A stretch of 64,000 nucleotides of DNA, taken from contig OZ024740.1 of the NCBI GenBank assembly GCA_964016885.1, forward strand, positions 42,470,001-42,534,000, given 5' to 3'. Both the position numbers and the translations under genes were made by a program. The notes below the pieces were generated by a model, which worked only from the letters and a program-made list of their open reading frames with translations, made no database searches and was not told the origin of the DNA. Numbering within the stretch: position 1 is the stretch's first letter; each line of letters opens with the position of its first letter. Of the stretch, positions 58,400 to 62,680 are shown one piece after another. Origin of the DNA: Eledone cirrhosa (Eukaryota).

Positions 58400-58590
58400 A
58401 ACGAAGGAAATGTGGTAAGGAACCAGGTGGACCATAACGCACCGAAGTACTCAGTACTTAGGGTAGTAGAGTGGGTAATAGGAACAAGTAAGACCCCGAC
58501 GGCTGAGCTCAAGCCGTTTCGACGGCTAATTCTGTACTGAATTAGCCGTCGAAACGGCTTGAGCTCAGCCGTCGGGGTCTTACTTGTTCC
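58400..58590 (-). mobile_element. Family E fold-back insert
   Basis: Hairpin at 58481-58590; (TA)n on both sides. Confidence 0.92.
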
Positions 58591-59815
58591 TAAATATATA
58601 TATATATATATATATATATATATATATATATATATATATATATATATATATATGGTCCTTACAATTTGAATACATGTATGTTTATATTTGTGTTTACCGC
58701 TCTTGTATATTCAATTATATTACACGGCACAGAAAACCTTTCTTTGAGCTATTTAATTGTAAGAGACTATTTTGAGTTTCTAACTCAATATATACCTTTA
58801 TATATATATATATATATATATATATATATGTGTGTGTGTGTGTGTGTGTGTGTGTGTGTGTGTGTGTGTGTGTGTGTGTGATAGATATGCCTTCTTCATT
58901 TTAATATAGAAAGAATATAGTTATTCCCTACTAACTTATTGAGTACCATATTTAACTGTGGCATTTCCCAACCATACTTAATTACACACACACACTCACA
59001 GACACACACACACAGAGGGACACACACAGACACACACACAGATACACACACACTGACACGCACATACACACTGCCACGTACACATACACTCACATATATC
59101 TATTTATATATATATATTCCCAAAACGCACCCATTGTTAATGTAATTATAACAATCACCATTGGTTAAATAATGCCAGTTTGCTTTTCACAAGATGACCC
59201 TTTGTAGAGAGTCAACACAATGTGTTAATTAAATGAAATACACCCCAAAGTAACGTTTGAATTGTAATCGATGTGATTTATTACTTTTAAAGTAAGGGCA
59301 AGCTTTCATTCAAAAGGTTACATGTAAACCTGTAGTAATTCACATGTCTTACAAAAGTGTAGTTTATCCTCGCGAGCATTTGAAAGTATCCTTTACACAG
59401 GAAATTAAAATCATAATTTGCTATCTACCATCTGTCTATTATAAACACATTCGTGCACATACAGGTGATTGATAAATATTCGCTGTCTACTTTCTCCATA
59501 TATATATATATATATATATATAAATATTTACATATACGGCGGGTGGCCGCGAAGAGGCTGCTATTATTTATTTATTTACAGTTTCTTCATAGGTGCCTTT
59601 TAATCTTATAGCCTGGTCTAATTGATTTTTTTTTGTGTGGTTAATTATGCTAATTGGGAGAGGAAATGATGTATATATATTATCAAATGATTCTATGGAC
59701 ATACTTTACTTTATATATATATATATGTGTGTGTGTTTGTGTGTGTGTGTTAGGTAATTCAAAAGGAAAGGCAAAGGAAAAAAGAGTGCTCTATGCATAG
59801 CACAGAGCTATTTAC

Positions 59816-59961
59816 TTAGAAAGTGAACAACACATAATATAACTACTCCATTACTATCTATAACATCTCTATCTGACGAACGATACAGACGTATATTCTC
59901 ATCTGTGATCCAGAAACCTTTGATAATGGAGTAGTTATATTTTGTGCTGTTCACTTTCTAA
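59816..59961. repeat. Fold-back (arms 59816-59853 and 59924-59961) with an HHR-like core in the spacer
   Basis: CTGACGA at 59873, gatacaga/tctgtgatc stem, GAAA at 59913. Confidence 0.7.
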
Positions 59962-60643
59962 TTTTATATATATATATGAAAAAAGTCAGGACCTTTTTCT
60001 TTTCCTATTACCCACTCATCAATCCATAGTATCGAGTACTCTGGTGCGTTATGGTCCACCTGGTTCCTTACCACACTTCCTTCGTTATATATTTATATAT
60101 CATCATCATCATCATCATCATCATCATCATCATCATCTTCATCACCATCATCATTTTACGTCCGCTTGTTCCTTCTTGTAAGGGTTGGACGGGTCCTATT
60201 CATCACAGCTGAAGTATGTGTATATATATATATATTATTTAATACAATAACAGAGAAAGCTTTAAGCTAAACTCTGACTGGCAACCATCTCACTCAACAA
60301 ACATTAGCATATACGTTAGTATAATCCCAATTTTGTGTTTGGGGTGCTAACTATATGTATTTTGTGGAAAGCCAGTTGTATTATTTTATATACGTATATA
60401 TATATATACGTTTATATATATATATATATATATATATATATATATATATATATATATATATATATATATATATATATATATATGTATATATATATATATA
60501 TATATATATATATATATATATATATGTATATATATATATATATATATATATATACATATATATAAATATATACGTATATATATATATATATATATATATA
60601 CGTATACATATATATATATATATATATATATATATATATATAT

Positions 60644-60840
60644 AACGAAGGAAATGTGGTAAGGAACCAGGTGGACCATAACGCACCAAAGTACTCAATA
60701 CTTAGGGTAGTAGAGTGGGTAATAGGAACGAGTAGGACCCCGACGGCTGAGCTCAAGCCGTTTCGACGGCTAATTCTGGAAGCGTCCAGAATTAGCCGTC
60801 GAAACGGCTTGAGCTCAGCCGTCGGGGTCCTACTCGTTCC
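60644..60840 (-). mobile_element. Family E fold-back insert
   Basis: Perfect hairpin at 60725-60840 with a 4-nt agcg loop. Confidence 0.93.
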
Positions 60841-62227
60841 TATATATATATATATATATATGTATATATATATATAACGAAGGAAGTCTGGTATGGCAAG
60901 GGACCAGGTGGACCATATATATATATATACATATATATAAATATATACGTATATATATATATATATATATATATATATATATATATATATATATATATAT
61001 ATATATATATATATATATATATATATATATATATATATATATATATATATATATATATATATATATATATATATATATATAAATATATACGTATATATAT
61101 ATATATACGTATATATATACATATATACATATATATATATAAATACATATATATATATATACAAATATATATATATATATATAAAGAAAAACCTTTAAAT
61201 ATTATAAACCTAATTAATATACACTTTAGAAATTAATATATAAACTATTTCTAATTTAGTTAACCTATAATTAATATTCTACTACTGATGAACTACATAA
61301 TTTTCCTTTCCTTCTTACAACTATCATTTCCTAAAACTGATACCATTAAGTAAACATATATAATGCTTTAACTTCAGGTTATGACTCTATGTTCCTTGAA
61401 AACTATATATATTTATTATTTCTCACTAAAAAATGTAATCCCCCCCCCCCCAATAATTATATGTATATGTAAGTGTGTATGTGTGTGTATGTATATATGC
61501 ATGTATATATATATATATATGTATATATATATGTGTATATATATATGTGTGTATGTATGTGTGTGTATGTGTATATATATGTATATATATATATTATTTT
61601 ATATTCTTTTAATTTCCCCTCATCTTTAACAGCACTTTTCAACTACATCTAACTCTTATTTATCATATCTATATGTATTAGTATAATTTTATTAATATAA
61701 ATATACCCATCAATTAAATTAATTTATATTCTTTTCATAGATGTATTTTTTCACTAAAATTCTTATCGTAAAACTTTAGTCACCTTAGATATTTGTATTG
61801 GCATTACTATTTTATAACAGCAACTGCTTGTATACCTTTTACTGACCACCTGACCTATTTTCACCCCTAAAATAAGCTTCAAATACTACTATTTTACCAT
61901 TTGACCAATTACTAACTTTCTATTGGTTAATTCTAAACCTCTTACCAAACAGACAGAATATATTAGATCTTTGTTGGTTTTATTCATTGAACAAATAACA
62001 TTATTTCTGAGGTCAGCATAAGACCTATTTCTTCCCTGAAATAATCCTTCATTCATAATATTCTTTTCCATCCAAAACTGAAATCTACCTTCCTCTACCC
62101 ATAATTTAAGGTTCTTCTACTACTATATTACTATCTTGACCCTCACTATCTCTCTATTGGTCAATTCAAAACCTGTTGCCAAACAGACCTATTGTATTGA
62201 ATCTTTGTTTTTTTCAATAAACAAATA

Positions 62228-62368
62228 TCATTATTTCTGAAGACAGCATATATATGTGTAGGTATGTATATTCCCTCTGAGGTTTGTATAAATATTGTAC
62301 ATAGATCTATAGAATATGCATACCAACTCTAACACATATATATCTTAGTAACGATCGTAAAATGATGA
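62228..62368 (+). ncRNA. Hammerhead-like motif with ~100-nt stem II region, GAAA decayed to GTAA
   Basis: tcattattt CTGAAGA cagc atatatatgtg..gtatgtatattc...gaatatgcatac..cacatatatat ctta GTAA c gatc g TA aaatgatga. Confidence 0.6.
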
Positions 62369-62486
62369 ATTTTTTTAATATAAGGAACTGTTTCTTTGTT
62401 TATTCATTATTTTATTAATTTATATATATATATATATATATATATATATATATATATATATATATATATATATATATATATATATA

Positions 62487-62680
62487 GGAACCAGTAAGAC
62501 CCCGACAGCTGAGCTCAAGCCGTTTCGACGGCTAATTCTGGAGTCCAGAATTAGCCGTCGAAACGGCTTTAGCTCAGCTGTCGGGGTCTTACTGGTTCCT
62601 ATTACCCACTCTACTACCTCAAGTATTGAGTACTTTGGTGCGTTATGGTCCACCTGGTTCCTTACCACATTTCCTTCGTT
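62487..62680 (+). mobile_element. Family E fold-back insert
   Basis: Hairpin at 62487-62599 plus tail. Confidence 0.92.

Follow-up and report, generated by a model that had tools for sequence, protein, structure and literature searches.

Palindromic insertions related to a Hydra-clade Penelope-like element in Eledone cirrhosa and their probable origin from two cDNAs

Results

The window analysed here is a stretch of 64,000 nucleotides (nt) from Eledone cirrhosa (assembly GCA_964016885.1, contig OZ024740.1, positions 42,470,001 to 42,534,000 of the forward strand), and its main feature is a set of four hairpin insertions. They are present at 49383-49557, 58399-58592, 60643-60843 and 62484-62681, each embedded in a (TA)n run and each made of a long and a short arm, as the preliminary description of this DNA had reported. 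By sequence comparison, each hairpin consists of two short pieces, placed back to back, of a 3,531-bp Penelope-like element (PLE) of the Hydra clade. Arm positions are given in the coordinates of this parent with the natural copy L098 as reference, where -1 is the last base of the long arm and negative numbers lie upstream in the parent. The landmarks are the short-arm end at -80, the ribozyme cut at -99, the GAAA motif at -122, the inner loop at -148 and the ribozyme core at -183.

The arm limits in the window were taken from BLAST against L098. The first insertion has its short arm on the reverse strand (49383-49437, parent -134 to -80) and its long arm on the forward strand (49438-49557, parent -121 to -1, including the 79-nt tail); the long arm starts 13 nt downstream of the inner end of the short arm, which is here the arm extending further 5'. 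In the second, the long arm lies on the reverse strand (58399-58542, parent about -140/-144 to -1) and carries subfamily alleles, and the short arm lies on the forward strand (58539-58592, parent -134 to -81). The third consists of a long arm on the reverse strand (60643-60780, parent -138 to -1), a 3-nt junction insert and a short arm on the forward strand (60784-60843, parent -139 to -80). The short arm of the fourth (62484-62542, reverse strand, parent -138 to -80) shows no difference from the parent, and its long arm (62542-62681, forward strand, parent -140 to -1) has a single change found in this arm only. The stem around the axis, described earlier as a feature of its own, is simply the two mirrored arms.

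The parent was reached by a search with the sequence flanking the arm in a 299-bp array, which led to tandem units of 3,531 bp. The unit contains one open reading frame (ORF) of 717 codons starting at +92. The translation revealed YRDD plus a YIG motif near the C end, together with DKT, RWR (R for K), a CNC-5-C linker (CxCX5C), CNLC (CxxC) and CKH (CxH), and this set agrees with the Hydra clade as described in PMC8557442. The search for protein relatives gave 2,049 at E<=1e-20, the best of which carries PF01541; the parent protein itself had 0 matches in Pfam and PDB sequence searches. Judged by its motifs, the parent is a C-terminal EN+ (endonuclease-bearing) PLE, with reverse transcriptase (RT) and C-terminal GIY-YIG in one ORF. 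The structural hallmarks of PLEs are also present, namely a tandem or partial-tandem pseudo-long terminal repeat (pLTR), an inverted 5'-truncated partner and a tail at one end. The Penelope-like origin suggested earlier is thus borne out by a parent with an upstream ORF.

The genome comprises 3.0 Gb, and the pattern of the hairpin centre was found at 9,641 exact sites against 0 for the reversed control pattern, hence the hairpins of the window are not due to chance. The exact 3' end had 23,112 matches and the intact ribozyme 2,034. All three counts are of exact matches and are lower bounds, and the 3'-end pattern can count one place twice, which happened once in the 90 rows used. The stubs amount to one exact palindrome per about 300 kb. 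In the scan of the window, the hairpins matched microRNA (miRNA) models of Rfam below threshold. Short-read contigs from three public runs of one sample were also inspected. Their depth rises about tenfold at -144 to -139, and loose TA ends occur at -80 and -1, matching the inner and outer boundaries of the assembled copies; the listing of these contigs does not include symmetric hairpin joints. The same contigs hold a recurrent opposite-strand joint of -139 to -46 (L098:3727 joined to 3820), and several assembled copies likewise end around -43 to -47, a possible secondary stop.

The arm ends were read in detail at 125 loci, all within the first 27 Mb of one contig. This sample is composed of the first 90 of 100 listed 3' ends (89 after removal of one duplicate), 7 more of these 100 and all 50 listed hairpins. 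A hairpin was defined as two anchors head-to-head within 70 nt, and 70 such hairpins were in the sample. TA runs adjoin the 3' end in all but a few of the 89 ends. The long arms of the 89 ends stop at -128 to -146 in 52 cases, are shorter in 30 and pass -147 in 7, one of the latter being a BLAST overshoot. The hairpin arms are still more uniform, with 134/140 ending at -133 to -144; the genome-wide hairpin pattern demands arms reaching -134, so the lower edge of this distribution is biased, and the set of 89 ends is free of that bias. The inner limit near -144 is a hard one. Arms that reach -143 or the limit often carry extra T runs, which would be expected of an RT stuttering at the end of its template. 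The idea that the second primer blocks the long arm at -80 was considered and rejected, as there is no step (20/89 ends fall in -99 to -23 and 10/89 in -127 to -100). The reading of the stop zone as a splice acceptor was also rejected, given that no common upstream exon occurs and many arms include the pyrimidine tract.

The outer ends follow an almost strict rule. An inverted piece follows in 63/89 ends, and its outer end lies at -80 within 3 nt in 56/63, in accordance with the fixed short-arm end noted earlier. Exactly one tailed arm is present in 66/70 hairpins; in three others the tail is partly deleted, one is tail-less, and none has two tails (the locus L129, outside the 70, has two). 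Eighteen long insertions, chosen from intact-ribozyme pairs, gave one -1 and one -80 end in 16 cases, with the -80 end twice in another and an end not seen in the last. Pairs of a second family with the same UUGAGAA core, read by eye, obey the one-tail rule in 9/9 cases.

The lengths of the two arms were then compared. The preliminary description had proposed a cDNA snap-back programmed by stem II of the hammerhead, in which the short arm is copied from the long arm, and short arms longer than their supposed template speak against it. The long arm reaches further 5' in 30 hairpins, the short arm in 25, and 15 are equal. In 10/63 inverted insertions the tailed arm stops at -28 to -123 and the tail-less arm reaches -133 to -673; among the long insertions the tail-less arm is longer in 10/16, for example -3358 against -1061. 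The lengths of the two arms are independent; the weak correlation of the arm ends (rho 0.26), like the excess of symmetric joins, speaks for some coupling. Only 4/70 junctions are compatible with primed fold-back from the long arm and 6/70 belong to the mirror-image class, so the snap-back proposal found no support. The 70 junctions comprise 29 with overlaps of 1-4 nt, 12 blunt ones and 29 with inserts of up to 23 nt, some of which copy nearby sequence; such joins are repair-like. The junctions differ widely among the 50 hairpins listed. This variation between loci sustains the view that each insertion forms anew with no spread as a miniature inverted-repeat transposable element (MITE). A MITE or DNA transposon with a fixed terminal inverted repeat unit was rejected on the same variation and on the arms being unequal pieces of a PLE pLTR.

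The variants mirrored in both arms had been taken as specific to each copy, which did not hold. The allele of the copy at 58.4 kb occurs in 22/70 other loci, those of the copy at 60.7 kb in 23-24/70, and the copy at 62.5 kb is of the parent type. Mirrored against one-armed variants number 124 to 28 for common, 6 to 69 for rare and 2 to 41 for private variants. A haplotype shuffle test, used in place of an arm phylogeny, showed that the arms share the common-site haplotype in 49/70 hairpins against 12.2 when shuffled, so both arms usually come from one subfamily and probably from one RNA or one source. At L067 the arms differ at three adjacent diagnostic sites, with both alleles existing at other loci; at L251, L062 and L243 they differ at one or two sites, explicable by mutation. 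Gene conversion is not needed for the mirrored variants, since the private variants are one-armed.

The arms also stop or pass together. Among the first 100 rows of intact-ribozyme loci, 27/65 are head-to-head pairs, compared to about 12% (7/59) expected (P 1.5e-9, or 6e-5 if the pass rate is assumed to be 0.2), and arrays run through 4-5 intact ribozymes. Stopping is therefore decided per insertion and not per passage of a ribozyme.

The promoter-type sequence near the inner limit was inspected. A TATA-like 7-mer at -169 is the sole one in the last 550 nt of the parent, and an initiator match lies at -140. From these motifs, the RNA probably begins at about -144 to -135, with its start set by the two. 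The limit also recurs in joins that are jumps. Three ORF-side hairpin-capped copies (L398, L399 and L400, all those fetched) have a short arm, then -143 or -137 joined to +114, +199 or about +819; the same copies continue from -143 or -139 to -1, and the unit is repeated in L399. The joins of L398 and L399 show short microhomology and may be internal jumps.

The hammerhead fold was analysed in the arms and in the parent. As described earlier, the long arm corresponds to the 3' half of a hammerhead-type fold and includes GAAA, a stem III loop that is palindromic and a GUC site; the 5' half of the core is absent from the four window hairpins. The minimum-energy fold of the parent pLTR has a three-way junction with stems I-III, GAAA and an NUH site (z = -0.51 against shuffles); Rfam gave no hammerhead match on the window or on the parent pLTR. 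The parent core is UUGAGAA in 2,034 copies, in place of the canonical CUGANGA. Thus, of the parent with an intact CUGANGA half that had been anticipated, the ORF and the hammerhead fold stood and the canonical core did not. No CUGANGA parent occurs in the window, and none of the 22 genome places with CTGANGA before the stem is a parent; these places were set aside as junction insertions or joins to other elements. By eye, the arm is fused at the stop zone with unrelated sequence in six of the 22; in two of these the partner is clearly F45, another family of the window. One ORF-bearing copy has a junction at -100/-105, and there is no clear peak at -99 among the 89 ends. Both letters of the 3-8 pair (C3 and G8) are altered in UUGAGAA, and from the sequence the altered letters likely keep the pair. 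The 3-8 pair can be exchanged for U3/A8. Its exchangeability has been demonstrated for G3/C8 (PMC11167929), and U3/A8 is not addressed in the accessible part of PMC7151607. In the predicted fold the short-arm start at -80 (L098:3780-3786) lies directly 3' of the extended stem I; the modelled fold may thus position the -80 start in the hairpin family, and the spacing differs in other families.

The other PLE families of the window were used as comparators, their end sets being best BLAST hits and not random samples. F50 forms a hairpin at 50081-50415 in which both arms carry a complete hammerhead; its axis is placed 68 nt upstream of the core, and longer copies have a TATATAAA box 32 nt ahead of that point. 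Of the 57 ends counted for F50, 16 fall within 13 nt (-1 to +11 relative to the position 32 nt behind TATATAAA); another 24 lie further upstream and 17 lie downstream. F58 forms a hairpin at 58192-58326 whose axis falls on the 5' border of the ribozyme (stem I and core), and 51/64 of its alignment ends lie 12-28 nt upstream of GAAA. The F45 arm at 27380-27625 (reverse strand) has a complete CUGAAGA hammerhead. The 5' ends of this family concentrate in a 22-nt zone 60-81 nt upstream of the core, which takes 15 of the 44 ends; 21 lie further upstream and 8 downstream of it. The motifs beside the F45 end zone we take to be YY1-like and NRF1-like. All three families thus have a stop zone outside stem II, which either precedes the core by 60-80 nt or sits at the 5' border of the ribozyme.

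Discussion

A two-cDNA (complementary DNA) origin of the hairpins is very likely, and given that origin the reading of the inner limit as a transcription start is probable in its turn. The overall reading, in which each end of a (TA)n break primes a cDNA, both cDNAs run off the RNA at its transcription start, and the two are then joined, was given a probability of about 0.65. The RT-endonuclease would bind the RNA close to where it starts and, as a dimer that has two start positions, would prime from both target ends, one cDNA at -1 and the other at -80, 79 nt apart, usually on the same RNA or source. Both cDNAs (140 nt and 60 nt) would run off at the RNA start, inside the stem II loop, resembling retroviral strong-stop DNA, and would be trimmed by 0-10 nt and end-joined by host repair or by the RT. 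A minority would jump to another RNA position, or would start one unit downstream on read-through RNA, giving rise to the long classical insertions with intact ribozymes. The ribozyme would be copied uncut and would give no direction to the turn; its place at the axis is likely an accident of the start position in the hairpin family. With a start inside the ribozyme, the RNA would contain just part of the 5' ribozyme copy, so that cutting would be confined to the 3' copy.

Several observations weigh against this reading. The detailed sample covers the opening 27 Mb of a single contig. TATA-like words are common in AT-rich DNA, with five more in the AT repeat at -553 to -569, and the Penelope promoter of D. 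virilis is TATA-less (PMC2377424). In a check for an untemplated cap G, a G stands at about 6/13 unambiguous -140 ends (by eye), and the partner arm often gives the same letter. As the inner ends are scattered across 12 nt, one has to suppose either trimming or more than one start. Joins of exact symmetry are over-represented (15/70 against 6.4 when shuffled, P 0.0006), which a shared run-off explains and some fold-back would explain too. At L120 an inverted piece has its outer end near -145 beside a 5' end at -140, a single case that fits RNA processing, a cut at the limit, better. The query for F63, a further family, demanded the whole ribozyme, so a stop inside it could not appear, and for F58 no parent sequence further upstream turned up, so any longer copies would have escaped notice. 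The in vitro work of PMC11167929 is a precedent for the two-cDNA reading in that both strands are cut and extended, two internal starts bound the tail and uncut RNA is used; its start sites are not strand-specific, in contrast to the one-tail rule.

A bolder form of the two-cDNA reading would place a retrovirus-like strong-stop step at the chromosome, with an asymmetric RT dimer that starts one cDNA at each of two fixed sites behind the cap. The hammerhead, inactive in the 5' copy through the start of transcription within it, would cut the 3' copy only and leave a 40-nt repeat, a jump across which would regenerate the pLTR, and the palindromes would be left by events without a jump of either cDNA. 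Were the RNA to start at -140 and be cut at -99 in the next unit, a 40-nt terminal repeat of this kind would result; the transfer across it is hypothetical, and this form as a whole is regarded as tentative and rather doubtful.

The strongest rival keeps the two cDNAs and takes the inner limit as an RNA 5' end that arose by processing, through cleavage within the stem II loop or through an exonuclease halted at RNA that is folded or bound by protein. It fits the independent arms, the decision per insertion and the jumps equally well, L120 is in accordance with it, and a cap-derived G is not established at the -140 ends. The comparator families speak otherwise, as the stop zones of F50 and F45 adjoin promoter-type motifs away from the ribozyme fold. 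The start-to-stop distance is also short in the hairpin family (about 60 nt) compared to about 170 nt in F50, and by this variation between families there is no fixed footprint. Processing is considered unlikely.

Less likely still is that each of the two cDNAs stalled at the stem II structure on a longer RNA before end-joining. Within the stem II loop there is an inner hairpin whose 3' strand contains the stop zone, and the folding energies of 60-nt windows starting at -180 to -100 are -10.7 to -14.8 kcal/mol. The fold of a window at -360 is as stable (-13.9 kcal/mol) without a stop, however, and the RT has already traversed stronger stems I, III and II before the stop zone. A stall at each passage also disagrees with arms that pass together far above the independent expectation and with arrays that cross 4-5 ribozymes, and in the other families the whole ribozyme is copied through.

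Snap-back, in which the long-arm cDNA folds back in stem II, self-primes to -80 and rejoins at TA, or self-primes on antisense RNA as in PMC3846280, is judged improbable. The subfamily haplotype common to both arms, the excess of symmetric joins, the four fitting junctions and the mirroring of two private and six rare variants would agree with it. The short arm often exceeds its supposed template, however, and the six mirror-image junctions, the long junction inserts, the mostly one-armed private variants and the 3-nt allele difference at L067 all oppose it, as does the identical inner limit in arms without a mirror partner.

Palindromes are deletion-prone, and some asymmetric copies could be later deletions, yet a collapse of longer head-to-head insertions, MITE-like spread or assembly artefacts are together very improbable, as parent-identical copies have the same ends, the limit recurs in non-palindromic joins, the junctions differ per locus and independent short-read contigs show the same boundaries.

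The family was compared with known systems. LINE-1 elements undergo twin priming, in which both target ends prime on the element RNA and the inversion is joined by microhomology. The second primer of LINE-1 anneals at variable internal sites and mostly without duplication, whereas here both starts are fixed and a 60-nt region is duplicated. Retroviruses and long terminal repeat elements prime near the RNA 5' end and make a short run-off cDNA, strong-stop DNA, that jumps onward. In the present family the primer would instead be the target DNA and not a tRNA, two cDNAs would be made at the chromosome, and most would never jump.

The Hydra-clade PLEs of PMC8557442 insert in (TA)n and have partial tandems, an inverted 5'-truncated partner, a tail at one end and a pLTR hammerhead, and the present family is like them in all of these and in the single RT-GIY-YIG ORF with DKT, RW-basic, CxCX5C, CxxC and CxH. 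It differs in its unit of 3.5 kb (theirs is generally under 3 kb), its tail of 79 nt (30-40 bp in theirs), its UUGAGAA core in place of the canonical one, and its copies, which are mostly stubs with a fixed inner end and not variably truncated. PAc/Poseidon in vitro (PMC11167929) is similar in that both strands are cut and extended from two internal tail-bounding starts on an uncut template, with a predicted dimer; there the starts are not strand-specific and later steps are left open, whereas here each target end almost always has one start and the cDNAs share a 5' limit. Penelope of Adineta vaga shares the head-to-head inverted pLTR, the junction palindrome and the one-sided tail, and a TATA plus Inr-like (initiator-like) motif was noted in its pLTR (PMC3846280). 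Self-priming on an antisense template was proposed there for PLE junction palindromes from few copies; the arm-length data here favour two cDNAs.

A pLTR promoter (PMC2377424), PLE hammerheads (PMC4209133) and internal dual initiation (PMC11167929) have been described, and the head-to-head one-tail layout and the (TA)n targeting are already known (PMC8557442, PMC3846280). A fixed run-off end that mass-produces palindromes, or strand transfer from it (jumps that build partial tandems), was not met in the literature searched, which largely excluded subscription papers, older PLE reviews and supplements; the term 'strong-stop' had 0 occurrences in the PLE literature searched. Families or cores of this kind may already be contained in the Hydra supplementary files of PMC8557442.

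Thousands of near-identical natural products allow the models to be told apart, and the family makes an open mechanistic question directly testable. The data weigh against self-priming as the principal route and suggest that the RT jumps off from a fixed RNA 5' end. The almost strict rule of one start per target end is unseen in the in vitro system. In annotation, the stubs could be mistaken for MITEs or miRNA hairpins, and UUGAGAA hammerheads would be missed by searches based on CUGANGA.

Other features of the window and related loci

Two single fragments of the hairpin family were found in the window. An older one without an inverted partner lies at 60002-60087 (forward strand, parent -86 to -1, 88% identity), and a diverged tail-end fragment at 60875-60917 (reverse strand, parent -38 to -1, 81% identity). 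Broken ORFs of other PLEs are present at 42575-43886, 29384-30490 and 52764-52964, with 31-46% identity to the parent protein. A 5'-truncated piece of another PLE family occupies 63363-64000 (forward strand), and its 3' end past the window (L318) has the second UUGAGAA hammerhead. This ribozyme, at L318:2050-2150 just past the window end, has a stem II that is short and a minimal, palindromic stem III, and the core is retained in nearly all of 30 loci of the family.

Derivatives of the parent were observed at several loci. The locus L105:3790-6027 (G000 C2:356.03 Mb) holds an array of 7.5 units of 299 bp each, in which ORF-side +1 to +122 is joined to the pLTR and a 20-nt deletion of the stem II loop ends at -140. 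By its sequence make-up, this array is a retrozyme-like, protein-less, hammerhead-bearing derivative of the hairpin-parent PLE. It is like the non-LTR retrozymes of bioRxiv 10.64898/2026.07.22.740005 and PMC4209133 in being protein-less with a hammerhead; the hairpins lack the 5' half of the ribozyme and are not tandem, and hence are not retrozymes. L106 has a similar unit of about 310 bp. At L101:6270-8583 and L319:1-1241, about 65 or more tandem 55-bp copies (-1917 to -1860) lie between the arms of one long insertion. In L033 and L045, near position 1500, an arm of the hairpin family (family E) is joined at the stop zone to an F45 hammerhead, with a 6-nt match in L033; this hybrid of two ribozyme halves probably reflects a template jump across PLE families.

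Palindromes of other repeat families are present in the window at 49807-50011, 62734-62993, 56075-56402, 27019-27314 and 1007-1992. In 62734-62993 a (TA)n run separates two 95-bp arms, and the palindrome at 56075-56402 overlaps PLE endonuclease-coding sequence. The region 45830-46790 is built of tandemly repeated units, about 270 nt long and each with a tRNA-like stretch, and includes an inverted piece at 46408-46566; the Rfam tRNA model matched 46002-46066 above the gathering score and 46624-46686 just below it.

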